Shown here piece by piece: positions 6,445 to 56,887 of a stretch of DNA of 64,000 nt (position 1 is the stretch's first letter; each line of letters starts with the position of its first letter). The notes beneath the pieces were generated by a model. It saw only the letters and a list, made by a program, of their open reading frames with translations, was not told where the DNA came from and ran no database searches. A program made the position numbers and the translations under genes. This DNA comes from a virus, in the IMG/VR virus record IMGVR_UViG_3300045988_180675, positions 1 through 64,000 of that record. One strand, 5' to 3'.

Positions 6445-6714
6445 TTAGTTGTTAGTGAAATATTCTTCTCTGAATTTCTTGATTGATGTGTTCATGAGTT
6501 CTTCTTTACTGTAAATACGCTTCTTTAGAAACTTATAAGCCAGTTCGTTCATGACTCCAATGCCAACAAATAGTGCCTTGGGGTTGTGCCCTTGAGCCTT
6601 TGTGATCTCTTCGCTAATCATATCGTTTGCCATTGTGAATTCAATCATCTCTTGTACGGAACCGTATAATACGATACGTTCTAATAATCTTCTTTCTATC
6701 TTTCTGTCCATCAT
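6445..6714 (-). CDS. hypothetical protein
   Basis: ORF immediately after secY. The GAGGTG RBS favours the ATG at 6714/6711 over the track start at 6720. Confidence 0.5.
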   Translation of the reverse strand: MMDRKIERRLLERIVLYGSVQEMIEFTMANDMISEEITKAQGHNPKALFVGIGVMNELAYKFLKKRIYSKEELMNTSIKKFREEYFTNN

Positions 6715-6725: not shown

Positions 6726-8015
6726 TTATCTAAAAAATGTAACCGTATCTGCGGCGTCAATGTAGGATTTCGCTTGATTTACAAGCTCCATCGCTACAGA
6801 AACGATAATGATGAGAGAAGTACCAAGGAAGGATACATTCACGTTAAATACACCTTCTAATGCGTAGGAAGCGATGCTTAATAAGATGAGCCCCACTGCT
6901 CCAATGAATACAACGTATTTCAATATATTTCTAAGATACTTTTCTGTAGGACTTCCTGCACGAATACCTGGAATCGTAGCTCCAGATTTCTTTAGGTTAT
7001 TTGAAACCTCTGCTGCATTAAAGGTAATCTCTGTATAGAAGTATGCAAAAGCAATCATTAGGATAATGAATGGAATCACACCTAATGTATACTTCATGTT
7101 CTGGATGTCAAACCACTTACTTGGCGTTAATACATGAACGATACGAGATAATGTTGTTGGTGCCTTTTCTCCTAATAGAGCAGATACAAATGAGAATCCA
7201 GAGAAAATTGTCGTTACGAAGATTACTGGCATGACACCACCCGTGTTGACCTTTAAAGGAATGTTAGATGATTCACCACCTACGAAGCGTCTTCCTTGCA
7301 TCTTTTGGGAATATTGGACAGGGATCGGACGTTCTGCATCATTTAATACGATCGTATAGGTAATAAATAACGATACGACAAGAATGATTGCAATAACAGC
7401 AATGACTGCCAATACAATAGGCTTATCTGTAACAAAACGCTTGTATAGTACAACCATATCTCTTGGTAGTCGGGATACAATGTTTAATAATAATACGACA
7501 GAAATACCATTGCCGATTCCCTTTTGTGTAATCTTGTTGCCCAAATAAATTAGGATATTTGAACCAGTTGCAAGCGACACGGAAGCCACTGCAATATTCA
7601 TCCATGTAGCAGGAATGACTCCTTGACGGCTAAAGCCAATTGACATAATGATAGCTTCAATAACGGCTAAGAATACTGCAATAAATTGAGTATACTTTTC
7701 TAACTTCTTTCGTCCAGTTTCTCCATCCTTTGCCAACTGCTCTAAACGAGGAATCGCAATCGTTAAAAGTTGGATTACGATAGATGCTGAGATATATGGA
7801 GCGATACTTAATGCAAATACTGACATTGTAGATAATCCACCACCCGTTAAAGTATTAAATAGCGATAGTGGTGAGTCGTCAGCAAACATCTTTTTTAAGA
7901 TTTCTGCATTAGCTCCTGGCACTGAAATCTGAGTGATGACACGAATGAATACTACCATCATCAATGTATATAAAATTCTATTTCTAAGTTCTTTGTTTTT
8001 GATTAAATTTTTCAT
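6726..8015 (-). CDS. secY: SecY-family preprotein translocase subunit (extra, non-ribosomal-operon copy)
   Basis: 429 aa and multi-TM. Hallmark SecY blocks: LSIAPYISASIVIQLLTIAIPRLEQLAKDGETGRKKLEKYTQ and PLKVNTGGVMPVIF. AAGGAG RBS. Flanked by element-specific genes, not rplO/adk. Confidence 0.85.
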   Translation of the reverse strand: MKNLIKNKELRNRILYTLMMVVFIRVITQISVPGANAEILKKMFADDSPLSLFNTLTGGGLSTMSVFALSIAPYISASIVIQLLTIAIPRLEQLAKDGETGRKKLEKYTQFIAVFLAVIEAIIMSIGFSRQGVIPATWMNIAVASVSLATGSNILIYLGNKITQKGIGNGISVVLLLNIVSRLPRDMVVLYKRFVTDKPIVLAVIAVIAIILVVSLFITYTIVLNDAERPIPVQYSQKMQGRRFVGGESSNIPLKVNTGGVMPVIFVTTIFSGFSFVSALLGEKAPTTLSRIVHVLTPSKWFDIQNMKYTLGVIPFIILMIAFAYFYTEITFNAAEVSNNLKKSGATIPGIRAGSPTEKYLRNILKYVVFIGAVGLILLSIASYALEGVFNVNVSFLGTSLIIIVSVAMELVNQAKSYIDAADTVTFFR

Positions 8016-20725: not shown

Positions 20726-20794
20726 ATTTTTTTCTCTCTTCCTACATTTATTATATTCTAAGAAGAAAATAAAAGCAAGTAGTTTGGAAAAATA

Positions 20795-20827
20795 AAAAAA
20801 GGCTGCATATTGCAACCTCTTTTTTTA
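20795..20827 (-). terminator. hairpin plus U-run terminator at the end of the TnpB-associated non-coding tail
   Basis: AGGTTGCA-ata-TGCAGCCT with flanking T/A runs. Confidence 0.5.
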
Positions 20828-21099
20828 TTCTTCACCAAATACTTCTTCCCACGATAGGAAGCCGCCTTCTTTACATCTTTCGGTCTCTACCGTAACTAGA
20901 AAATATAAAACTTTATTTCTGGATCAATTTTAGAGTTTTTCAACTCAAGGTCTTACGGTTAACCTATTCCACTTCAACTCACTCTATTTCGACTTGTGCC
21001 ACACAATAAAGATTGTCGCTGAAGCTTCTGGATAAACAACATCCTAAAGGGAAATGCCCAACTGTCTTGCGTTGATACATCTATATAGGATTGATTGTG
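20828..21099 (-). ncRNA. candidate omega/reRNA-like guide RNA scaffold downstream of the tnpB-like gene
   Basis: 272-nt ORF-free, GC-richer tail directly 3' of the TnpB-like ORF. Multiple hairpins: GAGTT-gaaa-AACTC, CGGT-agag-ACCG, GAAG-gcgg-CTTC, CTTCC-tatcgtg-GGAAG. The position matches where TnpB-family omega RNAs are encoded. Confidence 0.4.
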
Positions 21100-22440
21100 T
21101 TAAAGACTTTTAACGGTGTCTTTATAACCTTGTCCACGTCTAGCGATAACATACGAGGCTCCGACGTGAACATTAAGCTTCATAGTTGGACAATAGAGTT
21201 TTTCTGCTAACCAAGATGTCCAGGCTGGGTTAACTTTTATTAGTGTTACTTTGTTTTGGTAGGCAGCACCTTCAATAATGTTAGTGAATTGCCGATAGGC
21301 TAAAGAATGAAGCATTTCATTATGCCGTCTGCTTTGTTTGGCTTCAGTTTTAGACCTTTTCGTTCCGAAGTCGAGATCTTCAATACAGATGTCTTTGCCT
21401 TTTTGATATGCTAATGTTGTTACATGATTCGCAATTTTTTGTAGATCTGTTTTGGTTTTATTTCCAGATCTAAAACGATAGGGTAGAAGTTGCGTTCTCA
21501 CCAAATGTCCATACTGATTAGTTTCCGATAATGTGACAAACCCTTTATTAAAATCTAAGCCAATCGTCCCATAGTCGGAACAGGTAAAGAAGTTATTTGT
21601 ATCTGCTTGAATTTCAAAGGTACAATATAAGTGATATCGACCATTCTCTTTGATGATCCTATAAGATAATGGACTATTCTTGTTTTTTAGAATGGATATG
21701 ATTTTATCTTTGTGATGATTGAAATAGATCTCTCCATAAATAAATTTGTCTCTAGTATTAGCTGAGTATTTTTTGAAATCCTTACGTAATTTGATCGTAA
21801 ATTGGTTATTCTTCCGATTGTATGTCAGCTGCAAGTTTTGGTTGCAACAAACCTCTTCCTTAGCCCCGACAAATATTATTTGGCTGTCACGTTGTTCAAT
21901 GAATCTATCGTAATTTTGTTTTAATAATCGCTTCGTGCCAAAGCAAAGTTTTAATCTACCTGATTCTAGTTGATAATTCAAATTAACAAGCTTCTGTTTT
22001 AGACGATTTAATTTAGCCTTTTTGGAAACAATTTTTGACCTTAGATTTCGTTGTTTGATTGGTGAAACGAGCGTTCCATCTTGAAGTAACCTTGAATTAC
22101 TGTTTCTCTTCTCAACTAATTTAGGAATGAGTTGCTCTTCAAGATAACTAATCTTATGCCTTAATTGATTTACTTCATATCGCTTTAGTTCTTTTAGCGA
22201 ATTAAAGCGTCCTTGAGCATCTAAAATAATTGAGTTCGCAGTCCTTTTAGTGATATCATAAGAACATTGTAAGTAAGCATTAAAATTGGACTTATTAAAA
22301 TTTTCTGAAGTTCTGAGAGTATAGAAAGTTTCACGTACTGCCTTAGCGTATTCACTACGAGAAGCTTCTATGTATTTGATTAGTTCCAAGTTATTCTTTT
22401 CGTGTAGCTGTGTTACTACTGTAAACTTACGCTTCTGCAT
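21100..22440 (-). CDS. tnpB: TnpB-like (IS200/IS605 accessory, RuvC-fold) protein with a degenerate C-terminal nuclease/Zn-finger region
   Basis: 446 aa with an AAAGGAG RBS. RuvC-I TIGLDFNKG, RuvC-II ICIEDLDF, NPAWTS block, C-terminal ASYVIARRG (compare NAAxNIxRRG). Only one Cys where CxxC..CxxC is expected. A His sits where I align the third catalytic Asp. No TnpA nearby. Confidence 0.75.
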   Translation of the reverse strand: MQKRKFTVVTQLHEKNNLELIKYIEASRSEYAKAVRETFYTLRTSENFNKSNFNAYLQCSYDITKRTANSIILDAQGRFNSLKELKRYEVNQLRHKISYLEEQLIPKLVEKRNSNSRLLQDGTLVSPIKQRNLRSKIVSKKAKLNRLKQKLVNLNYQLESGRLKLCFGTKRLLKQNYDRFIEQRDSQIIFVGAKEEVCCNQNLQLTYNRKNNQFTIKLRKDFKKYSANTRDKFIYGEIYFNHHKDKIISILKNKNSPLSYRIIKENGRYHLYCTFEIQADTNNFFTCSDYGTIGLDFNKGFVTLSETNQYGHLVRTQLLPYRFRSGNKTKTDLQKIANHVTTLAYQKGKDICIEDLDFGTKRSKTEAKQSRRHNEMLHSLAYRQFTNIIEGAAYQNKVTLIKVNPAWTSWLAEKLYCPTMKLNVHVGASYVIARRGQGYKDTVKSL

Positions 22441-22514
22441 TACGGCTCCTTTCTATTTAACAGTATTATCTAATCAAATTTTATCAAATAAAGTATAAAA
22501 AAAGAAGAAATAAT

Positions 22515-23141
22515 TTATATTTCTTCTTTTTCTTCTAATGCATCTTCCCAAGAAAGGATATATCCATTCTTGTCTCTTCTCGTTTCCACCCACCATAATC
22601 TTTCGTATCGGGCGTAGTCGTCATCCAATTGCGAGCGGTACAGGCGTTTCCCATTTTTCTCCTTAATGAATTTCATAAGTGGATTTTCGTCTGTAAAAGA
22701 GAAACTTCCATCGTCGTAAACATTATCGAGAATGTCTTCTTCACATTCATTGATGTCTGTGAACTTTGCATTGTACACTTTACCGTCCAAATATTCCTGG
22801 AATACAGTTAGGTCTTCGTTTACCAAGTCGATAAATTCGTCTTCATCCATCTTTTCTGTAGTAAATGCAAAACCTAGAACTTCTCCTTCAGGTTTTTCTG
22901 TGGACTTCACTGCCTGCAACTTTCCTGAGATTTCTGTGAAAGAAACCATTTGGAAATTTTCTGCGTCTTTCGGTAGTTCACGGTCCATCATCTTAAAGTG
23001 ATCTGAGATGAAGAAGATGTTGCGATCTTCTCTACAGTTTAGCGGACAAAATTCAACAAAATTTGCAATTGGGTTGATTGGAGTTTCCTCCTTTTTAATG
23101 ATTAAAACTTGCCCTTCTTGATTAACATAAATCTTTTCCAT
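22515..23141 (-). CDS. hypothetical acidic protein
   Basis: 208-aa ORF with a strong AAGGAGG RBS. N-terminus resembles that of 23158..23916. Confidence 0.55.
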   Translation of the reverse strand: MEKIYVNQEGQVLIIKKEETPINPIANFVEFCPLNCREDRNIFFISDHFKMMDRELPKDAENFQMVSFTEISGKLQAVKSTEKPEGEVLGFAFTTEKMDEDEFIDLVNEDLTVFQEYLDGKVYNAKFTDINECEEDILDNVYDDGSFSFTDENPLMKFIKEKNGKRLYRSQLDDDYARYERLWWVETRRDKNGYILSWEDALEEKEEI

Positions 23142-25960: not shown

Positions 25961-26046
25961 TTTTGTTTTCTCCTTTTGTATATCTATATTATATTCTATA
26001 AAGAAAGTAATGTCAAATAAAAAAAGCCAGTTATGAAACTGACCTT

Positions 26047-29670: not shown

Positions 29671-30693
29671 TTATTCTGCTTCTACTTCTCTCTTCTTTTT
29701 GATGATCACGAATGCTACTACGCCACCAGCTAGAACTGTGGCTACAGCAGCCTTATTGTTGATCAAGATACCTGTAGGGATAACGCCTGACTTATCATTT
29801 GTATAACCAGTCTTGATCTTGTCTGAAGCACCTAATGTACCAGCTGTTTCGCCTTCTGCTACACCAGCAATCTTTGCTGTTGACTTATAACCATCGGCAT
29901 CTTCAGTAACAGTGTATTCAGCACCGTTGATCAATGATACCATCTTAACAGACTCGCCATCTGCTAGCTTAAATGTTGCAGTACCATTACCGTCACCGTC
30001 TGTAACAAGTGTTGTGTCGCCTAGTGTGTATGTAAAATTAGGGATTGCCTTCTTGATTTCGAGTGTAAACGTAAACTTCTTACTCTTATCACCTTGGTTT
30101 CCTGTAACCTTCTTCATGATTGTAATTTCGTCATCTGCTGATAACTTACCAGAGAATCCGTCCACCTTGTCATCAAGAGCATATTGTCCATCACCAGTTG
30201 CTTCTAATGCTGGGGCGTCTGTGCCTGTGTGTAGTAATGTTGCTGCAACCTTTAATGTACCACCGTCATCTACTACATATACGTCTAATGTACGTGTGTT
30301 ACCACTATCTACGACAGCGACGTTATCTTTTCCGCCTACTGTGTAACCGCCAGTGATAATGTAACGATAAATGCCTGGCTCTGTATAAGTACATGGGCTA
30401 AGATCGATTGTTCCTTCTGTGCCTTGAGTTAAATCTACATCAGCAATAGTAGGTGTTCCTACGCCAGCCTTGATGCCTTGTGTTGTTGCTGTTGCTGCAA
30501 CTGCAGTGCCTGGAGCGACTGTAGCTTTAAATACCTTTGCTCCTGCTGTACCACCTTCTGTAGTTAAAGTTGTGTTGAATGTTACATCACCACCTGTAAT
30601 TGGTGTGTAAGATGCAGCAAATGCTGTTGCTGTCGTTGCTCCAATTGCTAGAGCTGAAGCCGCTACGCTTCCGAGTAATTTCTTAATCTTCAT
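29671..30693 (-). CDS. major pilin, Spy0128/FctA (T-antigen) type
   Basis: Signal peptide, EPGIYRYIITG block, ITIMKKVTGNQGDKSKKFTFTLEI block. C-terminal sorting signal VIPTG + TM + KKKREVEAE (compare EVPTG of S. pyogenes pilins). Confidence 0.7.
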   Translation of the reverse strand: MKIKKLLGSVAASALAIGATTATAFAASYTPITGGDVTFNTTLTTEGGTAGAKVFKATVAPGTAVAATATTQGIKAGVGTPTIADVDLTQGTEGTIDLSPCTYTEPGIYRYIITGGYTVGGKDNVAVVDSGNTRTLDVYVVDDGGTLKVAATLLHTGTDAPALEATGDGQYALDDKVDGFSGKLSADDEITIMKKVTGNQGDKSKKFTFTLEIKKAIPNFTYTLGDTTLVTDGDGNGTATFKLADGESVKMVSLINGAEYTVTEDADGYKSTAKIAGVAEGETAGTLGASDKIKTGYTNDKSGVIPTGILINNKAAVATVLAGGVVAFVIIKKKREVEAE

Positions 30694-30735
30694 TTTCTTC
30701 TCCTGTTGCTTACTTTTTATGCGTGGAAGCTAAGC

Positions 30736-31221
30736 TTAGAAACCACGTCTTCGTGTCACGAAGAATACTTTCCCTTCGATATCGCTTTCTTTGATTGTTC
30801 CAAATTCTCTGCTATCACTTTCATCTTCTCTATAGTCATTTAGAACAAAGATTTCTCCTTCTGGAACCTTGATCGGATATTCTTTTTCACCTTTATTGGT
30901 GAGCGAATTTGTACTTTCGGCAGGTTGCATCCCATTTACCGTCAGTATTCCTTCTTTTGAGATATCCACTTCCTGTCCAGCCTTAGCGATCACTCGGTAG
31001 AGTCTGCCGTTATATATTACCACATCGCTTAACTGTACTTCCTTATCAAATTTTTCGATGACAACTAGGTCCCCGTCTTTAATGGACGGGAACATGTTGT
31101 TGTCGTAATAGATTGTGGCTGTTACCACAAATTTATTTAAAAGTACCAGAGCGATGCATGTAACCAAAATTCGTTGGACGAATCCCCATATTTGCCTGTT
31201 TTTTCTCTCTTTTTTTACCAT
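30736..31221 (-). CDS. SipA/LepA-like signal peptidase I homolog lacking the Ser/Lys dyad (pilus assembly chaperone type)
   Basis: SPase I fold blocks are present (NDYREDESDSRE compare GDNRxxSxDSR). The box B catalytic Ser is Asn (DNNMFPS versus GDSMxPT). The box D Lys is Tyr (LYRVIA versus VKRIIG). Confidence 0.75.
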   Translation of the reverse strand: MVKKERKNRQIWGFVQRILVTCIALVLLNKFVVTATIYYDNNMFPSIKDGDLVVIEKFDKEVQLSDVVIYNGRLYRVIAKAGQEVDISKEGILTVNGMQPAESTNSLTNKGEKEYPIKVPEGEIFVLNDYREDESDSREFGTIKESDIEGKVFFVTRRRGF

Positions 31222-34200
31222 TTATTCTTCTTCCGTCTTTTTCTTTTTCTTGATCAACAAGAGTATGATGCCACCAATCACAATCAGTGCAATTCCAATT
31301 TGTGATAGTTCAACATTTGTTGGCACTACCATTCCCTTAGTGTTTACGAACTTGATTTCAGTGGAAGCGTCTTCTTCAGCAATTTCAGCGGTAATTTCTT
31401 TTCCTTCTTGCTTGCTATCTTGCTTGCCGATCACTTCTGCAGTTGTTGCGTAATCATTTTCATCTTCTACAACATTAGCTTCCTTGATCCATGTGCCTTG
31501 AGCAAATCCTGATAATGTAGCCTTTTCACCATCTGCAAGCTTGAAGTTATAGTATCCTTCAGCATCTGCTGTTAATTCACTATGATTTCCAGCCGTATCA
31601 ATCAGTGTTAGGCTACCAGTATATGGATTACTATTGTTATCCGTTAATTTAGCCTTGAAGTTAAACTTATCGTTCTTATTTCCTGCATTTCCTCTTACAT
31701 CTTTCGATACGCTAATAACTTGTGCTTTTTCGTTATTGCATGTCATATAAATGTAATCTTCTTGCTTAGGATTCATCCATGCTGTTGAATAAGCAATTCC
31801 AACTTCTCTATTTTCAGTCACTTCACCTGTCATATCATTGTTCCAGTTTGGAATGTAGCCGTCAGATTCTTCCTCTGTGACCATGATGTCAGCGTATTTT
31901 GGAATACCTGCAACTTCTACGTTTTCACCATTTTTTAGAGTAAATGAGAATGCAGTGACATCTCCTTGATACTTAACTGTTTTTCTTGTTTGCTCTCCAT
32001 CTTCATCCGTATGAATGAGTGTTACAACATCTTGTGAGCGTAAGCCTCGAATACTTCCTGTGAACTGGAAATCTTCGCTAGAGGATGAATTAGTAAGGTT
32101 CTTTGCGTATGTTGCTGAGTATACATCTGAAATATCATTTGTTAATACAGCTCTATTTGTTTTACCTGTTTTCGCTGTGTAAACCTTTGAAGTGAAATCT
32201 TGGTTTGTCTTGCCGCCTTCATTGTTGATGAGGTTGTCATCTTCGAAGATCTTAATTGATGGCGTACAAACAATCTTATATCCATCCACCAATGACTTAA
32301 CATCTGTTTCTTTTACCTTGTATTTAACCTGATCAACACCTTCAAAGACAAACTTTACTGCAATTGTTTTTGAAATGTTTGTCGATACAGAGGCTAGTCC
32401 GTTTTCGTCAGATGTGAAAGTTTCTTCGTATTGGGTTGCTTGGTTTACATATTTGTATGTTGTATTAGGTGTTAATCCGCTAAATTCTACAGTGATATTA
32501 AAGTATGTATCTTCGTGTGTTCCAGTGTATGTTTCTGGCAAATGCTTTTCAACCACAATCTCTGTCGTGTTTGCTGTTGTTGGTGGAACATCCTTTTTAT
32601 TTGTGAATACAACTTCTTTATCAGTATCTAATACTCCTGATGTATTTTCTGCACCTGTTTGTGTCCAACCAGTCTGTGGTTGTTCTTGGATTGTGTAGTT
32701 TACGTTTACTGGTAATTCAATTTCCGTTGACGAATTTCCATTGATTCTTACAACTGCTTCGCCATTATTGAAGATTACGTTATTAAACTTTTGAACACCA
32801 GAAACACCTTCGCCTGTTAATTTAATGTTGAAGGCAAATGATGTTCCATCCTCGATATCAACATTCTTTGTAATTTTCAGCTTTCTTGTCGTTGTAACGA
32901 CATTGTTGTATTCATTTATAACTGTTGTCTCAAACTTACCTGTCTTATCGTCATAATTTATGATTGAAACCTTTTTGCCATTGATTTCTTTCGTTGCATC
33001 TACACGTCTGTAGTTCGGATTGTCATCTTCAACCAAATAGTGTTCTTGTGTCTTGTCAATGATTGGCATGACGTATGTCATTGAGCCATCTGAATTCTTG
33101 ATCCACTTGCTATCATCTGTTTCGTAATAGCGTCCACCATTTGCGGTTAAATCGAATCCCTTTGCCTTGGTTTCTCGAACCCAATACCCAGCGATATTAT
33201 TCATATCCGTAGGTTTTGTCGCATACTTTTCTTCTGCTACTGGTGAACCGTTTGTGTTGTATTTCAGGATCCATCTTCCAGTGTATTTATCTGATTCTTC
33301 AAACAGGTTAAAAGCTGATGTTAATCCATAACCAATGTTGTTGAATACAGTATTTTCTGATGTCTTAACGATTTGGAGTCCCTTTTTTCTTACAACTACA
33401 TTGTCACTTGGAAGAAGATTTGGATCTGAATAATTTGAGAAGTCAAAACTTGTTTGTGATCCAAGACCATAGATATAATCTACAACCATATTAGCTAGAT
33501 ATGGTTTTCTTCCGTTTGCATCCACATGATTCGGTTGTGGCATTTTAGATGTATCCAGATTTGCATATAAAGAGAATGCTCCAGAGAATCTTCCTGTAAA
33601 TTGAGAAAAATCAAATTTAGCACCAAGAATCTCGGCGTTTTGCATGAATCCTCCGTAGTCAGGATATGATGAAGGATTTATATTTTCTTGTGTAATTCCT
33701 GTTAAATCAATTACATGCTTCGTATTTTTATATACTTGGAATGCAAAGTTTGCATTCTCTATTTTTGATATTCTCTGTCTTGAAAATAGATCTTTAAAGT
33801 CAACTGAGGAGCCACTAAACATGGAATCAATGCGAGTTACTTCTGTAAGATCTAATGAGGAAAGATTTACTGTTAAGCTTTCGTCACCTGCATTTGGATC
33901 CCAAGCTGACATAAACATCTCTCTAGCATTTCTTGGTTGCATCTTTAGATTTTCCAAGCCTTCAATTTCTTTTACGGAGGCTCTTGCAAACATTGCCTCA
34001 GTGTTACCAAACTTCAACTTGGACCAATTCTCTCCAAATTTAATCTTTCTTGCACGTGCTCCTCTAAACAAGAAATTTAGACCTACATAATCAGAGAAGT
34101 TGGCTCCATCTGGAGTTTCTGTTCTTCCTTTTGCGTCCAATACTGTTACATGAGATAAATCAATCATGGCAGCAGATCCAGCGAATCTCGAAACTTCTTT

Positions 34201-34650
34201 TATATTGTCGTTCATTAGTTCGCTGAAGAATATCCAAGCCCAACCATTTAAAGTGCGATGTGGAATATAATCGCTTGGACAGATTCCTATTGTTTTATCA
34301 AAATCTAAGGTTGAAATTCCATTGAACCATGGATACTTTGTTTCTCTATCCTGCCTAATTTGTTCCATAGCACCAAAAGCCCAAGCTGGCTTTATTGCTT
34401 CTAAGCTTCCACTTCCTGCTACAAATCTTGTGTAGCCGTCTTCATAAACTTCAATTTTAGCTGTTGTTGCTACGCCGTCTGAAAACTGGTCCAGAGGCAA
34501 TGATATCTTCAACTCTCCATGTGCAGCTAGTGGTAATTCAGAAGAAAGAATAGGACTACTACCACTTCCTTCTTCTGCGTGTACCGAACTAGGCAATAGA
34601 GTAATGATAAATAATGTTGCTATAAACAGTTTCAATATTTTTTTTATCAT
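31222..34650 (-). CDS. giant pilus-locus adhesin: BspA/DUF285-like repeat head plus Cna-B/pilin-like stalk domains
   Basis: Start moved to MIKKILKLF (ATG 34650, AGGAAAGGAAA RBS) with a signal peptide. The N-terminal third has MF..a......LdLs..d.s.vt.m..MF type repeats. C-terminal VVPTN + TM + KKKKKTEEE. Confidence 0.75.
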   Translation of the reverse strand: MIKKILKLFIATLFIITLLPSSVHAEEGSGSSPILSSELPLAAHGELKISLPLDQFSDGVATTAKIEVYEDGYTRFVAGSGSLEAIKPAWAFGAMEQIRQDRETKYPWFNGISTLDFDKTIGICPSDYIPHRTLNGWAWIFFSELMNDNIKEVSRFAGSAAMIDLSHVTVLDAKGRTETPDGANFSDYVGLNFLFRGARARKIKFGENWSKLKFGNTEAMFARASVKEIEGLENLKMQPRNAREMFMSAWDPNAGDESLTVNLSSLDLTEVTRIDSMFSGSSVDFKDLFSRQRISKIENANFAFQVYKNTKHVIDLTGITQENINPSSYPDYGGFMQNAEILGAKFDFSQFTGRFSGAFSLYANLDTSKMPQPNHVDANGRKPYLANMVVDYIYGLGSQTSFDFSNYSDPNLLPSDNVVVRKKGLQIVKTSENTVFNNIGYGLTSAFNLFEESDKYTGRWILKYNTNGSPVAEEKYATKPTDMNNIAGYWVRETKAKGFDLTANGGRYYETDDSKWIKNSDGSMTYVMPIIDKTQEHYLVEDDNPNYRRVDATKEINGKKVSIINYDDKTGKFETTVINEYNNVVTTTRKLKITKNVDIEDGTSFAFNIKLTGEGVSGVQKFNNVIFNNGEAVVRINGNSSTEIELPVNVNYTIQEQPQTGWTQTGAENTSGVLDTDKEVVFTNKKDVPPTTANTTEIVVEKHLPETYTGTHEDTYFNITVEFSGLTPNTTYKYVNQATQYEETFTSDENGLASVSTNISKTIAVKFVFEGVDQVKYKVKETDVKSLVDGYKIVCTPSIKIFEDDNLINNEGGKTNQDFTSKVYTAKTGKTNRAVLTNDISDVYSATYAKNLTNSSSSEDFQFTGSIRGLRSQDVVTLIHTDEDGEQTRKTVKYQGDVTAFSFTLKNGENVEVAGIPKYADIMVTEEESDGYIPNWNNDMTGEVTENREVGIAYSTAWMNPKQEDYIYMTCNNEKAQVISVSKDVRGNAGNKNDKFNFKAKLTDNNSNPYTGSLTLIDTAGNHSELTADAEGYYNFKLADGEKATLSGFAQGTWIKEANVVEDENDYATTAEVIGKQDSKQEGKEITAEIAEEDASTEIKFVNTKGMVVPTNVELSQIGIALIVIGGIILLLIKKKKKTEEE

Positions 34651-34663
34651 TTCATTTCCTTTC

Positions 34664-37600
34664 CTATAGTCCCTCGTCTGGTTCTGCGATCTCTGGGACT
34701 TCTTCATTATTACTTGTGTTATTTTCCGCCTGTTGTTTTGAAGCAGAACTCGTTGCGTCATCAAGATTTGTGTAGACTCTAATCTTTGGAATGTAGTTAT
34801 CTGGGTTTCCGTTTGTCCACTTCTTTGTGATGACGAGTGAATCTGTTGCGGCTGGCATGTTTTTAACAACATATTTGCCATCAACCTGTTCCATATCTAG
34901 GATGTACGTTCCATCGTTATTTACTACTAAAGTGTATTCCTTTGGATCCTGTACAAACTTCTTTTTATCGCTTGATACAGGGTCTTGGTTTTCTCTAATT
35001 GTATAAGTTCCTACTGGAATATTTACACTTACTTTACCCGTTCCATAATCTGGAGAAACCTTTGTGTTTACTGGTACGCCTTCATAGTCTGTACCTGTAA
35101 TTTGGAAGCTGATATTTCCCCATATAGGTTGGTTTGTTTCTCCATTTAGCTTATACCACTCTACACGAGCGAGTCTATTGTAGTTGAATACAGTGTCAAT
35201 CTTTGTGTTTGTTGTCTTGTTTGTGATCGTTACAACACCATAATCATCAATCTTAACTTCTAACTCGTCTTTTAGCTTCATAAATTCTCTAGGTGTATTT
35301 GTTTCTTTGAGCTTATAAGTTCCCTTTTCGATATTCTTGAAGATAACCTTGCCATTTTTATCTGATGTTACTTTTTCGATTAAATCATTTCCATAATCGG
35401 ATGTACCAGATAGCGTGAATTCCACACCTTCGATTGGAGCAGAGATTCCTTCTTTATTAGGGAAGGTCTTCTTCTCAAATACAATATTTGCATGAACACG
35501 AGGAGTATTGAAGATTGTGATCTCTGAAACTTCTTTATTGTCGATTAACACTCTTCCATTTTCTGTGATCTCGATAACGTGCTTTTCTTCGTTTAGGAAG
35601 TAATCTGGAGTCGTTTCGTATTCTGTCAAAGTATACTTTCCAACTGGAATCTTCTTAAATTTGATGACTCCCTTGCTATCCGTTAGTTTGATCTCATCTA
35701 CATACTCGCCATAAGCACTTCTTCCACTTAGTTTAAATTGGATTCCAGGGATAGGTCGTCTTGTTGTGGCATCTTGCTTATTTAGCTGGAAGTTGCCCAT
35801 GATCTTATAAGTTGTTGTTGTATAACCGTTGAAGATATAGTTCGATGATTCTGCACCAGCTTCTCCAATAGCGGTTGCATTAGCATAAACGACGTTATAG
35901 TTCTTATATACTGTTTCGATCACTGGGAGATTTTCTGGGGCTCTCATATTCAGTATTGCGACAAGTGATTGTGACTTTCCGAGATATCCGATGGAATTAT
36001 CACTCTTTCTTCTGCAGTCAATCGCAATCGTTTTAATTGTTGAAAGATCTGAATTTGCATCTAATCTTGTAAAATTTTCTAATTTTTCTTCTGGTGTTAG
36101 ACCTCTTAGTGTTTCTAAGTCAATATCTTCTGTTGAACCGTATAATACTGGGGCAAATCCTAGTCGCTCCATTTGTGTCGTATCAACGGATTGAAGTATT
36201 CCTCTCCAATTTGGTTTCGCACCATCTGGAGTTGTGTATTTTTCAATATTATCAAACAAGATAATATCCTTTGTGTTTGATGTTGCTGAGTTTGCAAATG
36301 TCAGTTTATAGGAATAATCCTCATTTGGAGCCACGATTGTATCTGCTGTGAACTTTCCATCTGTAGAATTCTTAACAAGCTTCTTTAGACCAGATGAGAA
36401 GTATACCAGTGTAGACAAGTTATATGTTGTATCTGCATAGATAAATCTATTTCCTTTATCTGTTGTTAAGTTACTCATTTCCTTTTTGTATGATCTAAGA
36501 ATAGAGGCATCGTCAGCTGTTCCGTCAGTAATAGCACTATTGCCTGTTTCAAAAGCAACTGGGTTATACACGTTTCCACCATAATCTCTTATGTTGTCAT
36601 AAGGGAATAATGTCTTGAATTTTAGAATTGGATGTTCCATCTGATCGGAGGTTTCGAAGATAACAAGTGTACGTCCTGTATTCTTGTAATTTTGCTTTGT
36701 TGTTACTGTGACGTTGTATGTCTTGCTGCCATCTTTTTCTTCTAGTGTAACGTTGTTTTCGTCGACAATTAAACCTGCTGGCATCAAATCAAACCACTTA
36801 CCACCATCTTGTGGGATTGACGATACGTCCGTGCTTGATGTTCTTGCCGTTTCTTCAGTATCAATGACCCATGTTAATTCATATTGCTTCTTAATACGGT
36901 TATTTAATACTTCTGCAACGTTCTTACGAATTCTTTCATCGGTCTGTGTCTTTCTTGCGAAATCGTATTCTAATGGTGCTGTATAGTTGAAGATCTCTTC
37001 GCCATTTGCCTTTCGCATGTAACCATGAACTTCAGATTGGACAATAATGTCTTCCTTGTTGGCAACAAAAGCGTCAACCTTTGGCGAATGTTTTAGTTCA
37101 TAGTTTGAACCTGCTAAAATCTCAGTAAAGTAATATGGGTTTTTGGATACCAACTTATAGGCAATTACATTGTTATCAAACTTCAGGTTGTTACCAGAAG
37201 AAGTTAATCCTTCTTTTATGATATTGTATTGATTCTTTGCTACATCATAGTCTGCAACATGCACATATTCTGAGCTTTGATTATCGTATTTCGCATATAC
37301 TTCTACAAACGCATTTTCTGGTGTAAAAAATGGATTCGGTTTGAATTTGTTGTATGTAGAATCATATTTTGCTTCTATAAATCTTGGGTTTAATGCAACG
37401 TTTTGAATCTGATAGTCTTCAGAAGTTAAGTTGTCAATAATACTTCCTGTTTCTTTGAGCTTGATTCCGTCTACAAACTGCTCATAGATGACGTTTTGCT
37501 TAAAGTAGTTTTCTGGGAGTCTTTCTTTTCCATCTTCTACTGTGAAATACTCTGGCATTCCGTAAATGTAGTATCCAAAATCAAGATTGTTATATGTATT

Positions 37601-38782
37601 TAATTTTCCGCTTTGGAAATCTTGTAGATCGTATCTTGAATACTCACTTAGCTTTACTCCTACTGAACTCCAGTTTTGTTGGATACTGTCTTTATCTACA
37701 CGGAAGATGTTATCTCCGTATTGAAGAGAAATAAAGTTTCCTTCTTTTACCGACCATGGATCCTTGAAATAATTGATGTCTACAGTTGTGGTTTGCTCCA
37801 TTGGCTCATCCTGGTGATCAATACCTTCTACGATAAACTTGTTAGTTGTTCTAATCGAAACTGTTTGGTCATCTTTATATTCAGATTTTGGAAATCTATA
37901 GAGAATAGAATCAATTCTGTCGATAAATTGATAACTGTTTGTTTCACTGTTATTATCGACCCAGCCGTTTGTTCCAATGTTGTATTTGTATGGAACATAC
38001 GTCTTTGAACTATCATTTGCATCTACGGCAGTAGATTCGATTGTAAACTTGTATGGTTGGTTACCTCTTGTTACTGATTTAAACTGCAGTTCAGAATAGA
38101 AGTATGCATCTGCATCAGCTGGCTTTTCTCCCCAAGTATCATCCCATTCCTTGAATACATCTCCTACAATGGCTCCCCTTACGCCTTCAATGTTTGCGTA
38201 GGTGTTGATTGTGATCTGTTGTAACTCATTTGAGGATGTTAGCTGTCCTCCTGCTGTATCAAGCTCTACTTTTGCGTTTACATGTTCTGCTGACATTGAC
38301 ATATCTGTATATTCGCTAGCCTTATCCGTTAATTGGTAGGCGTATTCGAAGTTATATGTCTTACCAGATGGGACTGGGCGTCTATTTGAAATAACGACTT
38401 CTCCATCAATAATTTCATACATCCATAGTGATGTTACCTCTTCGCCCTGGGCAGTTGCATCTTCGACTTCCTTTTTGGACGGGATAGAAATCTTGAACGT
38501 ATCACCAATAGAACCATCACGCTTAGTGAAGATCGTTGCTGGCAGTTTTAGTCTTGCTGTAGGAATTTTCTCTGTTCCACTGATTGAAAACTCCGTCGTG
38601 TATTTGAAAGAACGTTTTGCCTCGTTTTGTGTTGGGGCGTAAGTAACTTCATCTGCTGTTGTTTGAAATGATTCTATTGCATTCGTAGAGTTAGATGTAA
38701 CGTCTTCTGCATTTACTATGCGTGGTGTTACGAGTGTTGCAATGCAACTTAATGCTAAGAGTTTTTTGATTAAATTCTGCAT
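34664..38782 (-). CDS. giant secreted adhesin with Cna-B/SpaA-type domains and no C-terminal sorting signal
   Basis: 1372 aa with a signal peptide. Several prealbumin-like repeats (GIQFKLSGRSAYGEY..TDSKGVIKFKKIPVGKYTLTEYETTPDYF; GVEFTLSGTSDYGN..SDKNGKVIFKNIEKGTYKLKETNTPREF). Ends ..EEVPEIAEPDEGL with no LPxTG-like motif or TM. Confidence 0.75.
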   Translation of the reverse strand: MQNLIKKLLALSCIATLVTPRIVNAEDVTSNSTNAIESFQTTADEVTYAPTQNEAKRSFKYTTEFSISGTEKIPTARLKLPATIFTKRDGSIGDTFKISIPSKKEVEDATAQGEEVTSLWMYEIIDGEVVISNRRPVPSGKTYNFEYAYQLTDKASEYTDMSMSAEHVNAKVELDTAGGQLTSSNELQQITINTYANIEGVRGAIVGDVFKEWDDTWGEKPADADAYFYSELQFKSVTRGNQPYKFTIESTAVDANDSSKTYVPYKYNIGTNGWVDNNSETNSYQFIDRIDSILYRFPKSEYKDDQTVSIRTTNKFIVEGIDHQDEPMEQTTTVDINYFKDPWSVKEGNFISLQYGDNIFRVDKDSIQQNWSSVGVKLSEYSRYDLQDFQSGKLNTYNNLDFGYYIYGMPEYFTVEDGKERLPENYFKQNVIYEQFVDGIKLKETGSIIDNLTSEDYQIQNVALNPRFIEAKYDSTYNKFKPNPFFTPENAFVEVYAKYDNQSSEYVHVADYDVAKNQYNIIKEGLTSSGNNLKFDNNVIAYKLVSKNPYYFTEILAGSNYELKHSPKVDAFVANKEDIIVQSEVHGYMRKANGEEIFNYTAPLEYDFARKTQTDERIRKNVAEVLNNRIKKQYELTWVIDTEETARTSSTDVSSIPQDGGKWFDLMPAGLIVDENNVTLEEKDGSKTYNVTVTTKQNYKNTGRTLVIFETSDQMEHPILKFKTLFPYDNIRDYGGNVYNPVAFETGNSAITDGTADDASILRSYKKEMSNLTTDKGNRFIYADTTYNLSTLVYFSSGLKKLVKNSTDGKFTADTIVAPNEDYSYKLTFANSATSNTKDIILFDNIEKYTTPDGAKPNWRGILQSVDTTQMERLGFAPVLYGSTEDIDLETLRGLTPEEKLENFTRLDANSDLSTIKTIAIDCRRKSDNSIGYLGKSQSLVAILNMRAPENLPVIETVYKNYNVVYANATAIGEAGAESSNYIFNGYTTTTYKIMGNFQLNKQDATTRRPIPGIQFKLSGRSAYGEYVDEIKLTDSKGVIKFKKIPVGKYTLTEYETTPDYFLNEEKHVIEITENGRVLIDNKEVSEITIFNTPRVHANIVFEKKTFPNKEGISAPIEGVEFTLSGTSDYGNDLIEKVTSDKNGKVIFKNIEKGTYKLKETNTPREFMKLKDELEVKIDDYGVVTITNKTTNTKIDTVFNYNRLARVEWYKLNGETNQPIWGNISFQITGTDYEGVPVNTKVSPDYGTGKVSVNIPVGTYTIRENQDPVSSDKKKFVQDPKEYTLVVNNDGTYILDMEQVDGKYVVKNMPAATDSLVITKKWTNGNPDNYIPKIRVYTNLDDATSSASKQQAENNTSNNEEVPEIAEPDEGL

Positions 38783-46173: not shown

Positions 46174-46228
46174 TCACTTTCCTCTTTTCTACGTCTTTAT
46201 TATATGTTATAAAGAAAGTAAAGTCAAG

Positions 46229-47645: not shown

Positions 47646-47712
47646 TTTTTTATCTTACATGCTAACATCTAAAATGTCAATAAATATTTTTGCAAAAATA
47701 TCTAATTAGTAT

Positions 47713-47741
47713 TTGTTAAAAAGAAACTATTGTGTTATACT
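47713..47741 (+). promoter_or_regulatory. element-consensus promoter
   Basis: TTGTTA-AAAAGAAACTATTGTGT-TATACT (17-nt spacer). Confidence 0.55.
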
Positions 47742-52990: not shown

Positions 52991-53809
52991 CTAATTTTTA
53001 TATGCCTTATCAGTGATAATATCTGAGATTTTGTATATTTTACCATCTTCCAATTGGTCTGCAAAATATTTCATCTGATACTCAATATCATGTTTACCTT
53101 TTGGCTTTTCAAATTTCCATGAACTACTGAAATCAGATTTTTCATCTAATGCGTCGATACGATTTTTCTTCTTGTTGAGTCTAATATACAATTCATCGTC
53201 ATCTTTAATGCATGATAAAAGCTCTTCTTTTACAGCGATAGGACAATCAATAATGCTTTCGTCGATCATGTATTTCTTATCTCTCATCTTTTCTTCGATG
53301 AAGTTGTAATCATCCATGGCAATCCATGCCAACGCCCCAATGGCTGTGGCAACAAGCATTATTATCATTACGATAGAACCAAATATCAGAGTTGCTCCGA
53401 GAAAATAATTTCTCATATTTAAAGAATACATGCAGAATTTTGCGAAAGCAATTATTCCAGCAATGGAAATTGCAAAGGCTAGTATCGGCTTAAATGTTAC
53501 TTTTAATATTGTTTTGGTGATCGTGCCAATTCCTAGCCACTTTCCGATTTCTCTTTTGCTTTCCTTTTTCGTTGTCGGTTTATTACCCAATTGCTTGCAC
53601 AACGCTTTCTTTTGCTCTAGCTCATCAACTTCACTATCTGCTTCGATGCACTTATCGAATGGAAGGGATTTACTTATTTCGTTATTCTTGTATATCTCTT
53701 TTCTTGGAACGGCTTTTTCTACAGCTTCTTCTTGAGCATCATCTTCTTCTAAGATGCTTTCTAGTGTGAAGTGATTATTAGACTGCTGTTCTTGTGTTAG
53801 TCCTGCCAT
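52991..53809 (-). CDS. membrane protein, paralog family B
   Basis: MAGLTQEQQ.., LPFDKC, TM helices, YKISDIITDKAYKN. AAGGAG RBS. Confidence 0.6.
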   Translation of the reverse strand: MAGLTQEQQSNNHFTLESILEEDDAQEEAVEKAVPRKEIYKNNEISKSLPFDKCIEADSEVDELEQKKALCKQLGNKPTTKKESKREIGKWLGIGTITKTILKVTFKPILAFAISIAGIIAFAKFCMYSLNMRNYFLGATLIFGSIVMIIMLVATAIGALAWIAMDDYNFIEEKMRDKKYMIDESIIDCPIAVKEELLSCIKDDDELYIRLNKKKNRIDALDEKSDFSSSWKFEKPKGKHDIEYQMKYFADQLEDGKIYKISDIITDKAYKN

Positions 53810-53886: not shown

Positions 53887-56211
53887 TTATCTAATCTTTT
53901 CCTTACAAACGAATGCTAAGCACATTCCTAACATAGATAATGTGAAGAGCTTTAATGTGTCGTTCATATTGTCACCAGTAGGGGCTGTATGCTCACTGAT
54001 AACAGTTTCAGATTGTGGCTCGTTATTTGTTGGCGTAGTTGTTTCTTCAATAGGCTTCTTTGTGTAGACGTGAGTTCTAATGCCGTCTGCCTCTTTTGTT
54101 TCAACAAAGTTATAGCCATCAATATCTTGTTTTTCTACAAAGCCTTCTGCCAATTCTCTTAACTCGTTACCATTTGTATCAATGAATCTTGTGATCTTTA
54201 ATTCGGGATTCTCTACAACTGGACTATCATTTGGAACTTCTGTTTCAACCTTTGTGTAAACATGTGTTCTAATATCTGCCGTTTCAGTTGTTTCCTTGAA
54301 GATATAACCAGAAATCTCCTTCTTTTCTACAAAATTTTCTTCTAGTTCATGGATATCATTGCCCTGTTCATCTACAAATCTAGTCACCTTTAATTCAGGT
54401 AATGTCACTTCTGGTGCATCACTTGGCACTTCCTCATGTAATTCTTCATATACATAAGTTCTGATGCCGTCTTGGTCTGGCAACTTTTCTTTAAACACAT
54501 ACTTCGTGTTATTGAATGTGATTTCAGCTTTCTTATCTGTAAAACCATTCTCAAACTCTGCAATTTGTTCATTGTCGGTATTCACAAATGTTGTAATTTT
54601 AAACTCTGGGATTTCTACAGTTGGTGCATCACCTGGAATCTCATGTTGCTCATTCCATGTGTTTGTCACGTTAAATCCGTTATCCATATCTCCTGCAACA
54701 GAAGTCATGTAGAAATTCATTTCATCCTCTTTAATAGAATACTGAATCTCTTGATTCCCATTATACTTACGTAAGCCCGTAAAAGTGTATTCCCAGTTGT
54801 TTGATGGATCTAATACGATGGACTTACCTGTATCAACATTATCAGCATATAAATGCATTACTGCTTGAGTACCTGTATTACCTACCCAAGTCTTAGATAC
54901 TTTAATATCTCTTGTGATAGGCTCATCCTTTACAGTAACAATATTGTCCTTTGCAATTGACGTTTGAATAGTAAATACTGTGCTATTAAGTTTGTAGCCG
55001 AATGGTGCTTCAATTTCTTTTACTTCATAATTTGCTTCAAACACCATATTCGGAGTAATTGCTACACCATTTTCATCTGTTACAAGTGTTTGAGTAGTGC
55101 CGTTATCTACATTCTTGATTTCAAACTTAGCACCAGCAAGTTTTGTTCCTGTTTCTGAATCCTGCTTAACAATTTGTAGCTTACCTGTTGTTGTTACACC
55201 AGTAATGCCACCTACATCAGCAAGTTTGTATTGTGCTGTAACATCCTTTGTTACTTCATCACTTGAAAGTGCAACTTTATTCTTTTGAATTGTGCCATCT
55301 GTCATAGAGGTTTTCATGAACAACATGTAACCCTGTGTACCAATGTCACCTAGATCCAATGTCCACGACTTAAAGTCTGGAGAGAATTGAATCTTATCTG
55401 TAACATCTACAATCTCTCCCCAATGAGAGATAGTTGCATTTTCATTGTATGTTACCTTCTGCAACTTAAATCTTTCTTTCGTAACATCTACTGGATTTAA
55501 GAACCAGCCATTATCAGTTACAAGACTATCGGACAATACTACATGATGTAAGTCCATAGCACTCTTGTTGATTCTAATGATCCACTTTACTGTGTTAGGT
55601 TCTGCTGGTAAGCCTTCACCCCACTTAGCAATTACTTCACCACTTGTACTTGGTCGTGTAATTGTTGTTTCACATGAGGCTTGGTAGCCATCATATACGC
55701 CATTACCCTTGATGGTTAATGTAATAGTGTTAGTCTTATTTAGTTCAATGTGGTTCTTATTAAATGGCACCCACATGAAAATATTACCACTTAGGTTAGA
55801 ACGGTTATTAGCCTGCTCATTGAATACTACGTTAATCTTGCCACCTTCTGTGCCGTTAGGTAATAGTGTACCTTCGCCAATGACATCTTGAGTTACAGTG
55901 TCAATGATAGGGAATGTTTTGTCCAACTTATCAGAACTCATGTCAATTTGTTCTGGCACGATAATATCAAAATAATCTCCTGTATGGACTGTTTCTGTTG
56001 CGTTCCATGTCATGTTTAAAAAGAAACTTGATCCATCGTAAAGGTTGCTTTGATGCACTGCGTTGCCACTATCTCTTAGTGATACCTGGACGAGCTGTAC
56101 ATCCAACCTACGTGGTGATGGGGGGGTAATCTCGGCTTCTTCTGCGTGTGCAGGCATTGCCATACAAATCAAAGTGAATATCATTGTTACGAATGTTAAT
56201 ATCTTTTTCAT
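53887..56211 (-). CDS. Cna-like (collagen-adhesin/MSCRAMM-type) wall-anchored adhesin
   Basis: Start moved to MKKILTFV (ATG 56211, AAGAGGAAAAG RBS). N-terminal A-region-like domain, two Cna-B type domains (GKLQIVKQDSETGTKLAGAKFEI..; ITRDIKVSKTWVGN..), three ~55-aa repeats ending GIRTHVYTK. C-terminal APTGD + TM + KEKIR. Confidence 0.75.
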   Translation of the reverse strand: MKKILTFVTMIFTLICMAMPAHAEEAEITPPSPRRLDVQLVQVSLRDSGNAVHQSNLYDGSSFFLNMTWNATETVHTGDYFDIIVPEQIDMSSDKLDKTFPIIDTVTQDVIGEGTLLPNGTEGGKINVVFNEQANNRSNLSGNIFMWVPFNKNHIELNKTNTITLTIKGNGVYDGYQASCETTITRPSTSGEVIAKWGEGLPAEPNTVKWIIRINKSAMDLHHVVLSDSLVTDNGWFLNPVDVTKERFKLQKVTYNENATISHWGEIVDVTDKIQFSPDFKSWTLDLGDIGTQGYMLFMKTSMTDGTIQKNKVALSSDEVTKDVTAQYKLADVGGITGVTTTGKLQIVKQDSETGTKLAGAKFEIKNVDNGTTQTLVTDENGVAITPNMVFEANYEVKEIEAPFGYKLNSTVFTIQTSIAKDNIVTVKDEPITRDIKVSKTWVGNTGTQAVMHLYADNVDTGKSIVLDPSNNWEYTFTGLRKYNGNQEIQYSIKEDEMNFYMTSVAGDMDNGFNVTNTWNEQHEIPGDAPTVEIPEFKITTFVNTDNEQIAEFENGFTDKKAEITFNNTKYVFKEKLPDQDGIRTYVYEELHEEVPSDAPEVTLPELKVTRFVDEQGNDIHELEENFVEKKEISGYIFKETTETADIRTHVYTKVETEVPNDSPVVENPELKITRFIDTNGNELRELAEGFVEKQDIDGYNFVETKEADGIRTHVYTKKPIEETTTPTNNEPQSETVISEHTAPTGDNMNDTLKLFTLSMLGMCLAFVCKEKIR

Positions 56212-56248
56212 TTTACTTTTCCTCTTTTCTTTCTTTTGAATATTGTGT

Positions 56249-56887
56249 TTAATAGTTCTTTGCTGAAAATACGATACCGATACTGTCATCCAACCATGTG
56301 TCTGGAATCTTCTTTGTACATTCTTTAAATCTGGTTAATGGGATATCCCAGATATTGTAAGTTGCCTTCTCAAATGACATCTTTATTCCAGATGTTTCTT
56401 CATCGAAGTCCTCTTCCTGATCATGGAAGTACATGCCACTAATATCACACTTACCTTTTTCAAAGATGATTTTTGGTGAAGTTTCGTCAGTACAGTCAAA
56501 ATGCCAATCAATCTCTGCTGTGCAATCTGCTTCGCTTTCTTGTTTTAACATTAAATCGCTTAGGTAAGCGACAATAGGTTTATCCGTAGGATCTAGGACA
56601 TTTCTTGTGTAATAATCAAATTTACTTACAATTTCTCCGTAGTTTTCGTTTCTGTAGTTTTCAATATCCATGCCATCAAGAATGTGATACAGATTGACAA
56701 TCATGGCAGCTGCTATGGACTTATTATTTTTGTTCAATTCTGTTTTCCAGTTATCCTTTATTTTCGTGATAAATTCTGCCATCTTTTCTTGTGCTTCTTT
56801 GATTGTTTCTACTTCAAATAAGACCGTTGCAAGCATTTCTCTGTTGTTGTCTGTATCTTTGCTATAATTTTTGATTAAAAATTTCAT
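56249..56887 (-). CDS. hypothetical protein, paralog family C
   Basis: Paralog of 45631..46173. First gene of the C-adhesin-B operon. Confidence 0.6.
   Translation of the reverse strand: MKFLIKNYSKDTDNNREMLATVLFEVETIKEAQEKMAEFITKIKDNWKTELNKNNKSIAAAMIVNLYHILDGMDIENYRNENYGEIVSKFDYYTRNVLDPTDKPIVAYLSDLMLKQESEADCTAEIDWHFDCTDETSPKIIFEKGKCDISGMYFHDQEEDFDEETSGIKMSFEKATYNIWDIPLTRFKECTKKIPDTWLDDSIGIVFSAKNY

Follow-up and report, generated by a model that had tools for sequence, protein, structure and literature searches.

The stretch analysed here comprises positions 1 to 64,000 of the IMG/VR virus record IMGVR_UViG_3300045988_180675, and this whole stretch of 64,000 nucleotides (nt) is called the window below. 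On its minus strand, a small insertion lies at the 3' end of a gene for a protein of 208 amino acids (aa). The insertion consists of a short left end, an intact open reading frame (ORF) for a TnpB-like protein of 446 aa and a structured RNA directly behind it, after which host DNA resumes (Table 1). A reading of the letters alone, made without database searches (the sequence-only reading), had taken the locus for a nuclease-dead, RNA-guided regulator comparable to the TnpB-derived TldR repressors. The results given below point in another direction, namely to a non-autonomous insertion of the IS607 family, whose TnpB-like protein has a conserved active site and whose guide would be specified by the flanking DNA.

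Table 1. Features at the insertion and its host gene in the window
Feature	Position	Strand	Basis or remark
tnpB-like gene, 446 aa	21100..22440	minus	intact ORF with the motifs TIGLDFN, IEDLDF and NPAWTS
omega-RNA scaffold, Rfam RF03065 (IS605-orfB-I)	20889..21091	minus	Rfam match and covariation; starts 8 nt past the stop codon
predicted guide, first 20 nt, AGAGACCGAAAGATGTAAAG	20869..20888	minus	end of the scaffold and matching unoccupied sites
B-allele remnant of the 208-aa gene (3' end), coding for (V)ETERCKEGGFLSWEEVFGEE and stop	20825..20888	minus	part of no intact gene
intrinsic terminator, from the host gene	20794..20824	minus	terminator scan; the same hairpin lies behind the gene in unoccupied relatives
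element left end	22441..22545	minus	A/T-rich hairpin GAAGAAATATAAATTATTTCTTC and ribosome-binding site AAAGGAG
TGGGA motif (second target-adjacent motif, 'TAM2') directly 5' of the left end	22546..22550	minus	L085 has the same left junction
own 'A' allele copy of the targeted stretch	22546..22592	minus	TGGGT at 22588-22592, then GGAAACGAG
host gene, 208 aa, its 3' end being the insertion target	22515..23141	minus	ORF

The three motifs on which the sequence-only reading had based its assignment to TnpB are borne out by the ORF, and the relationship is confirmed by profile and structure searches. TIGR01766, the TnpB-related domain, matches aa 327-409 (E 1.8e-9; 38 bits, above the cut-off of 32), while NF040570 guided_TnpB of NCBIfam reaches 37 bits against a cut-off of 100, and Pfam Cas12f1-like_TNB reaches 14 bits against a cut-off of 26. 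This last match covers positions 1-28 of the 60 profile positions (aa 382-409), i.e. only the part that precedes the zinc finger, which means that the zinc-finger part is missing from the 446-aa protein. An AlphaFold2 model, for which an alignment of 64 diverse relatives (alignment A1) served as input, had a predicted local distance difference test (pLDDT) score of 93.3 and a predicted template modelling (pTM) score of 0.84. Foldseek searches with this model gave full-length matches to AsCas12f (2e-9), CnCas12f1, Cas12m2, CasX, ISFba1 TnpB and Fanzor2. Judged from the model, the protein is a TnpB/Cas12f-like effector, in which a bilobed WED/REC part is joined to a RuvC (RNase H-like) domain that lacks the zinc-finger insert; an enlarged, long N-terminal helical hairpin is seen at about aa 65-160. 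A phmmer search of the protein against the PDB gave chance-level matches only, the family profile reached UnCas12m4a alone (E 1.4e-3), and megablast against GenBank phage records gave no match. An exhaustive homologue search yielded 1484 clusters at 50% identity, mostly full length. The identical 446-aa protein is present on 12 contigs, and homologues at 71-94% identity have kept all the motifs.

No CxxC..CxxC pattern was found in the 446-aa protein, where the gap between NPAWTS and His425 comprises about 16 residues with one Cys, and a CxxC pair between RuvC-II and RuvC-III was found in none of the 150 listed representatives. In the presumed active site, Asp296, Glu354 and His425 are near-invariant and belong to the best conserved columns of the 64-sequence alignment A1 (His in at least 90%). 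His425 is kept in 118 of the 120 closest homologues (71-100% identity), and the C-terminal motif H-x-[AG]-A-[AS]-x-V-I-A-R-R-G occurs in 124 of the 125 motif-bearing sequences among the 150 listed representatives. The two close homologues in which the His is replaced, by Arg in P0003 (L096, 4001-5344) and by Tyr in P0105, show no other damage; they may represent natural variants without activity, with which active copies could be compared.

The His had been aligned by eye with the third RuvC Asp of canonical TnpB, and this placement is upheld by sister copies from thermophilic Clostridia. These read ..ISKDVAAAYVIARRG where the 446-aa protein has ..LNVHVGASYVIARRG, i.e. an Asp stands exactly at the position of the His, and the segment without a zinc finger is found in them as well. 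The model puts His425 where the helix behind the fifth strand begins, which is the place of the last acidic residue in RNase H-fold enzymes, and the C-terminal helix is retained. An hhalign comparison of the family profile with a zinc-finger-bearing TnpB of a relative (L099) aligned RuvC-I alone (probability 2.5%). The equivalence of the His with the third Asp consequently rests on the motif, the Asp-bearing sisters, the modelled position of His425 and the published description of a clade.

This clade is RIIIr-4, a major clade of TnpB in which the C4 zinc finger is lost and the RuvC-III Asp is changed to a conserved His (Altae-Tran et al. 2023, PNAS, PMC10691335). The same authors predicted from the conservation of the site that RIIIr-4 is still active, and suggested an altered substrate specificity for the rearranged clades. 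RIIIr-4 was also among the 59 orthologues tested by Nety et al. (2023, PMC10278001), where only a RII-r5 member is named as active; in the literature searched, these two papers are the only ones that mention RIIIr-4 by name. The 446-aa protein matches RIIIr-4 in the two defining traits of the published description, and the assignment is made by these traits rather than by placement in a tree. In other words, the sequence-only reading was right that the zinc finger and the third Asp are absent, but not that this is a loss particular to the present copy, since the absence is conserved across the family of 1484 clusters. Both are family traits and not decay. Nor is a distinct new variant supported, because both traits are already on record as the signature of RIIIr-4. 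An Asp-Glu-His RuvC site without a zinc finger may nevertheless stand for a chemistry or a substrate that is new to TnpB/Cas12.

The structured RNA behind the gene was identified as IS605-orfB-I. The match to RF03065 spans 20886..21091 on the minus strand and model positions 1-214, with 192.4 bits as compared to a gathering score of 94.2, and compensatory changes are seen in 25 of the 57 predicted pairs (16 loci). A structured 3' tail had been expected here and was found, but the expectation that it is GC-richer than its surroundings was not confirmed (0.36 vs 0.32-0.40 across the window). The same RNA lies 3' of the gene in L003, L004, L006 and L082, and more distant members of the family score below the gathering threshold. 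The 3' edge of the scaffold is well marked. The terminal helix ACCGUAA/UUACGGU is closed by base 20889; in L086 and L098 this base is A, and its partner covaries. When copies at different sites are compared, similarity ends directly past the scaffold. Taken together, these two observations place the start of the guide at 20888, with the terminator stem about 45 nt downstream. The terminator had been correctly noticed behind the tail, whereas the guide had been assigned to the last 20 or so nucleotides before it (20828-20850), which is about 40 nt too far downstream. The primary transcript that includes the guide is likely to end at this terminator. A self-target search found no other match to the guide with up to 3 mismatches in the window.

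The sequence that follows the scaffold is readily explained by the alleles of the host gene. The 208-aa gene has no Pfam match; among its 72 homologues, two classes of C-terminal allele can be distinguished. Class B (..RCKEGGFLSWEEVF..) comprises 32 clusters and class A (..RRDKNGYILSW..VFEN and stop) 27 clusters, and six more clusters of the A type are fused to ..LEEKEEI and stop. The remnant behind the scaffold is 87.5% identical to the gene end and terminator of the unoccupied L083, and its peptide fits the class B C-termini of the 32 clusters. As the predicted guide is the start of this B-allele remnant, the guide is flanking DNA. A search for guide matches next to a flanking motif, as the sequence-only reading had proposed, was successful: the unoccupied B alleles of L083 (a 178-kilobase (kb) element), L105 and L106 read tggtgggt followed by AGAGAC.., i.e. 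the guide-like sequence comes directly after TGGGT and has 2-3 mismatches to the guide in 20 positions. The window's own A-allele copy, compared with the guide in register, has about 10 mismatches in 20, and is for this reason predicted not to be targeted.

Unoccupied sites were also found for other copies, since the window itself holds those of the copies in L086, L087, L094 and L096. The five bases 5' of the guide-like sequence are TGGGT, TGGAA, TGAAT, TGAGC and TGGCT, and TGGGT can be deduced as a sixth from the tRNA T-stem in L003. The six independent sites together give the target-adjacent motif 5'-TGRNN. That a small subset of TnpB target-adjacent motifs is G-rich is mentioned by Nety et al. 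(PMC10278001).

The left end is conserved in copies at different sites (alignment A4), and in the window it provides the 208-aa gene with its last codons and stop (..LEEKEEI and stop). In L107 and L108, which have natural A alleles and lack the element, the sequence agrees fully with the window as far as about 22541, the divergence starting between 22545 and 22540; the left junction is at TGGGA, 20 nt ahead of the stop of the A-allele gene. In L085 the right junction comes exactly after the same TGGGA motif, so that nothing is duplicated and L085 is a simple insertion. The window and L084 differ in this respect: their right junction follows the TGGGT located 42 nt upstream of TGGGA, next to a flank of the B type. 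As the left junction is at TGGGA in an A allele and the right one at TGGGT in a B allele, the DNA between these motifs occurs twice, and a shuffle-controlled test detected the duplication in both loci (z = 5.5 in the window, z = 7.0 in L084). Reading L085 as the product of a 46-nt deletion was rejected, because the natural A alleles show it to be a simple insertion. Given L085, recombination involving copies at two neighbouring motifs accounts better for the duplication. The simplest account of the sequences would be that the window copy is a recombinant, formed inside the element between copies that sat at the two motifs in different alleles; a one-ended move would be an alternative origin of the doubled stretch. 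In the resulting arrangement the 208-aa host gene stays whole.

A duplication of the flank was also considered as a general feature of these elements, either by a Campbell-type integration or as an obligatory 'rescue' copy, and was rejected. It is found at 3 of about 15 sites only (the window together with L084, L003, and L086), and is therefore an occasional outcome and not a property of the family. In L003 (1-201 and 1759-1860), from a Carnobacterium metagenome-assembled genome, the element lies within a tRNA array: an intact tRNA and spacer are found upstream, and the T-arm and acceptor end of that tRNA and the spacer recur, in diverged form, behind the scaffold (alignment of about 100 nt, z = 14.7). 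Since the diverged tRNA copy follows the scaffold, the guide of L003 is the 3' end of a tRNA. In L086 (6564-6591, compared with the window at about 46400-46640), the scaffold is followed by exactly 27 nt of host sequence from the guide side, and about 190 nt of the duplicated gene end that would come next are deleted, which may reflect selection for the guide, or chance. Other right ends have changed as well. In L094 the last 35 nt or so of the RNA scaffold are tandemly duplicated ahead of a new flank (6530-6602). L087 and L094 share a common left flank, and draw their guides from two separate TGA-flanked positions within a gene for a 272-aa protein (window 52991..53809), a pattern that suggests right-end rearrangements by which the guide is swapped.

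Comparison of the copies shows the element to be mobile. Close relatives (60-94% aa identity) occur at about 15 different sites, each with its own sequence behind the scaffold and with varying neighbours. Their insertion sites include the inside of a C5 DNA methyltransferase gene, a tRNA T-arm, a position after an N6/N4 methyltransferase gene and one beside a GIY-YIG gene. In L095, an ORF of 212 aa with a MerR-type helix-turn-helix and a Resolvase domain (E 8.9e-22), i.e. an IS607-type TnpA, lies directly upstream; tblastn detected such a TnpA in the same upstream position in 13 further loci, with His and Asp variants alike, so that at least 14 loci have it. In the window no IS607-type TnpA was found (best tblastn E 8.7; Y1-type TnpA was not searched for), which agrees with the earlier remark that the gene has no TnpA partner there. 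Because the relatives have a TnpA upstream and none was found in the window, the window copy is regarded as a non-autonomous derivative. More distant relatives are present in several copies per genome, with 14 loci in Ectobacillus funiculus, 6 in Caldanaerobacter subterraneus, 5 each in Dielma fastidiosa and Thermovorax and 3 in Breznakia. Both the Asp and the His variants are multi-copy, and the ends of the elements are sharp in the copies of Ectobacillus, Dielma and Breznakia. A GG crossover dinucleotide has been reported for IS607. A fixed 'GG' at the junctions was therefore considered here and rejected, as the right ends read ..ACGG, ..ACAG or ..GCGA. The 198-kb relative L099 contains a canonical zinc-finger TnpB of 437 aa (1327-2640; Pfam OrfB_IS605 and Cas12f1-like_TNB) 1.4 kb upstream of its zinc-finger-less copy; in other words, both kinds of TnpB coexist in one element.

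We are confident in classifying the locus as a non-autonomous IS607-family element with a RIIIr-4 TnpB and a guide RNA, of which the cutting of DNA would be the predicted function. On balance we consider it probable that this insertion, with its short left end, its RIIIr-4 TnpB and its IS605-orfB-I scaffold, acts on unoccupied sites flanked by TGRNN. Transcription through the gene and the scaffold into the flank would produce an RNA whose last 20 nt or so, from 20888 downward, are the guide. The complex would then recognise 5'-TGRNN together with the guide sequence, i.e. the unoccupied B-allele site in related elements of about 200 kb, where the match itself is observed. Cutting at this site is the most likely consequence, and repair from the element-bearing copy would keep or spread the element. 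Retention or spread by cutting and repair has been shown for TnpBs of IS605 and IS607. Movement to new sites would be brought about in trans by an IS607-type serine recombinase, as the relatives that carry TnpA suggest.

There are several points that weigh against this reading. The TNB/zinc-finger domain is missing, and other TnpB and Cas12 proteins use TNB around the RuvC site. No cleavage by a RIIIr-4 protein is reported in the literature searched, and the conserved Asp-Glu-His might serve RNA processing only. A scan of the left end gave no sigma-70-type promoter, the element lacks a sharp outer border on this side, and the proposed origin of the recombinant with its two motifs is drawn from three site families only.

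Some of these points would fit better with a dead binder, i.e. a TldR-like repressor that has lost its nuclease and regulates a gene of the element or of the host. The absence of the zinc-finger/TNB domain, the His in place of the third Asp, the silence of the literature on cleavage and the missing IS607-type TnpA in the window would all be compatible with it, as would the closest sequence match in the PDB, which is to Cas12m (E 1.4e-3), a protein that silences DNA without cutting (PMC10691335). TldRs, however, are immobile in their locus, have no TnpA or transposon ends, possess a deteriorated or truncated RuvC domain and carry conserved guides against promoters such as those of fliC or oppA (Wiegand et al. 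2023/2024). Every one of these features that could be tested failed here. The Asp, Glu and His that TldRs lose progressively are near-invariant throughout the family, as they are in 118 of 120 close homologues. The copies occupy about 15 sites and have differing guides, TnpA adjoins the gene in relatives, and the family is multi-copy in several genomes. Multi-copy insertions with intact ends, which the sequence-only reading had itself named as speaking against its proposal, are found in the distant relatives. Moreover, the guide is the flank, and what it fits is no promoter but the 3' end of a coding sequence, in an allele that other genomes carry; it has no second match in the window. A nuclease-dead regulator is hence quite unlikely. 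Still less can be said for a decaying IS relic without function, which we consider very improbable indeed. Recombinant junctions, the lack of an IS607-type TnpA in the window and the two homologues with a replaced His (Arg in P0003, Tyr in P0105) are what a relic might show, but the ORF is intact and confidently modelled (pLDDT 93), the RNA scores over its full length, the identical protein is found on 12 contigs, and all motifs are kept in homologues that are 71-94% identical.

A somewhat better case can be made for an Asp-Glu-His site that is active but does not cut double-stranded DNA, the protein processing its own RNA, nicking, or cutting single-stranded DNA or RNA, and the element being kept in some other way. 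Orthologues that process omega-RNA without activity on double-stranded DNA were described by Nety et al. (2023, PMC10278001), who suggested other substrates; the loss of TNB could alter the loading of the substrate, and the altered specificity suggested for rearranged clades (PMC10691335) goes in the same direction. The consistent 5'-TGRNN at six sites argues the other way, and so does the fact that Asp and His variants of the same clade are both multi-copy, while a guide that equals the flank is exactly the layout needed for homing by double-strand breaks. We consider this alternative unlikely. It is likewise rather unlikely, in our estimate, that the element works as an RNA-guided allele-exclusion or 'cleave-and-rescue' device among the oral elements of about 200 kb. 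The guide would target the B allele of rivals, and the element's own genome would keep the whole gene as a mismatched A allele. If this is true, a co-resident B allele would be cut and converted, and the element would drag along the linked A allele.

The DNA around the insertion belongs to a large element of the human oral cavity, since contigs from human oral metagenomes, with lengths of up to 199.8 kb, contain sequence identical to the window. A relative of the 200-kb element is listed as viral in IMG/VR. The window encodes a SecY homologue (6726..8015), a UvrD helicase and a dUTPase, as well as a sortase-dependent pilus/adhesin set (29671..38782 and 53887..56289) with SpaA, Cna_B, Collagen_bind, DUF7601, Sortase and Peptidase_S26. 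The comparison also covered L001, L002, L083 and L096-L104, and DNA polymerase III alpha, RtcB, GmrSD and a T2SSE ATPase are encoded in relatives. Judged by its gene content, the element looks more like a giant plasmid-like element than like a classical phage.

A full-length ROOL RNA (Rfam RF03087, 187 bits as compared to a gathering score of 99) lies at 24102-24733 on the minus strand, two genes upstream of the insertion, and is found at the same place in the 178-kb L083 (4407-5043). A dispersed promoter-like repeat, TTGCTAAAAAGAA-N-TGnTATAAT...AGAAAGAAAGAGA, precedes many genes (repeat families D4, D7 and D10; on the plus strand at 47679-47768, 48509-48558, 57917-57966, 58993-59042 and 61504-61593; also at 25967-26026, 46178-46237 and others). 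The same box stands ahead of tnpB in L096 and L099, and not in the window. Degenerate periodic repeats of 9 and 27 nt (CTGG.TT.GC-type; families D1-D3 and D5) at 3942-4085, 9443-9852 and 11953-12255 lie within large minus-strand ORFs and probably encode repetitive, Pro/Thr/Glu-rich linkers of surface proteins.

As the loss of the zinc finger, the change from Asp to His and the RNA family were all known before, the locus itself is not a discovery. Nevertheless, it offers a natural test set in which the protein, a scaffold with an exact guide boundary, the TGRNN motif from six sites and both matching and non-matching alleles are available together. It also shows that recombination of two nearby insertions can leave an element inside a gene without destroying the gene.

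Compared with known systems, the element resembles the IS607 family in the TnpA with MerR helix-turn-helix and Resolvase domains upstream in relatives, in the lack of inverted repeats and in the insertion of L085 without target duplication. It differs in that the window copy has no TnpA and its junctions come from two neighbouring sites, with 42 nt of the host gene doubled. The protein shares with RIIIr-4 the missing C4 zinc finger and the conserved RuvC-III His, and that clade is reported to be enriched in viruses and to have serine-recombinase partners; the present set, on the other hand, includes sister copies with Asp, and the subfamily of the 446-aa protein is distinguished by an RNA scaffold of its own and by the long helical hairpin near the N-terminus. 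The RNA agrees with IS605-orfB-I in its full-length match, its place directly 3' of an orfB/tnpB gene and its covarying helices, and no differences in structure were seen. Rfam files RF03065 as a small RNA motif, whereas here its 3' edge can be read as the boundary between scaffold and guide.

The TnpB-omega-RNA systems of ISDra2 and of other IS605 and IS607 elements are reportedly homing nucleases, as Karvelis in 2021 and Meers in 2023 are said to have described. The present locus has the same order of gene, 3' scaffold and a guide that equals the right flank, a short motif 5' of the target at the insertion site, and a guide that fits the unoccupied site. Unlike in those systems, there is no zinc finger, the site is Asp-Glu-His and not Asp-Glu-Asp, cutting is a prediction from sequence, and the motif is the G-rich TGRNN, while the motifs of IS605 and IS607 TnpBs are mostly AT-rich. 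With TldRs the protein has in common that it is TnpB-derived, lacks a zinc finger, has an altered RuvC-III and is located on a mobile element, but immobility, lost transposon context, a deteriorated RuvC and conserved promoter guides are all absent. Finally, the free-standing homing endonuclease genes of phages (intronless homing, marker exclusion) likewise lie beside or within a gene and target the allele that lacks the element, with a naturally mismatched allele in their own genome. They differ from the present element in that recognition is by a protein and not by an RNA guide, and in that the cutting is, in our case, a predicted one.

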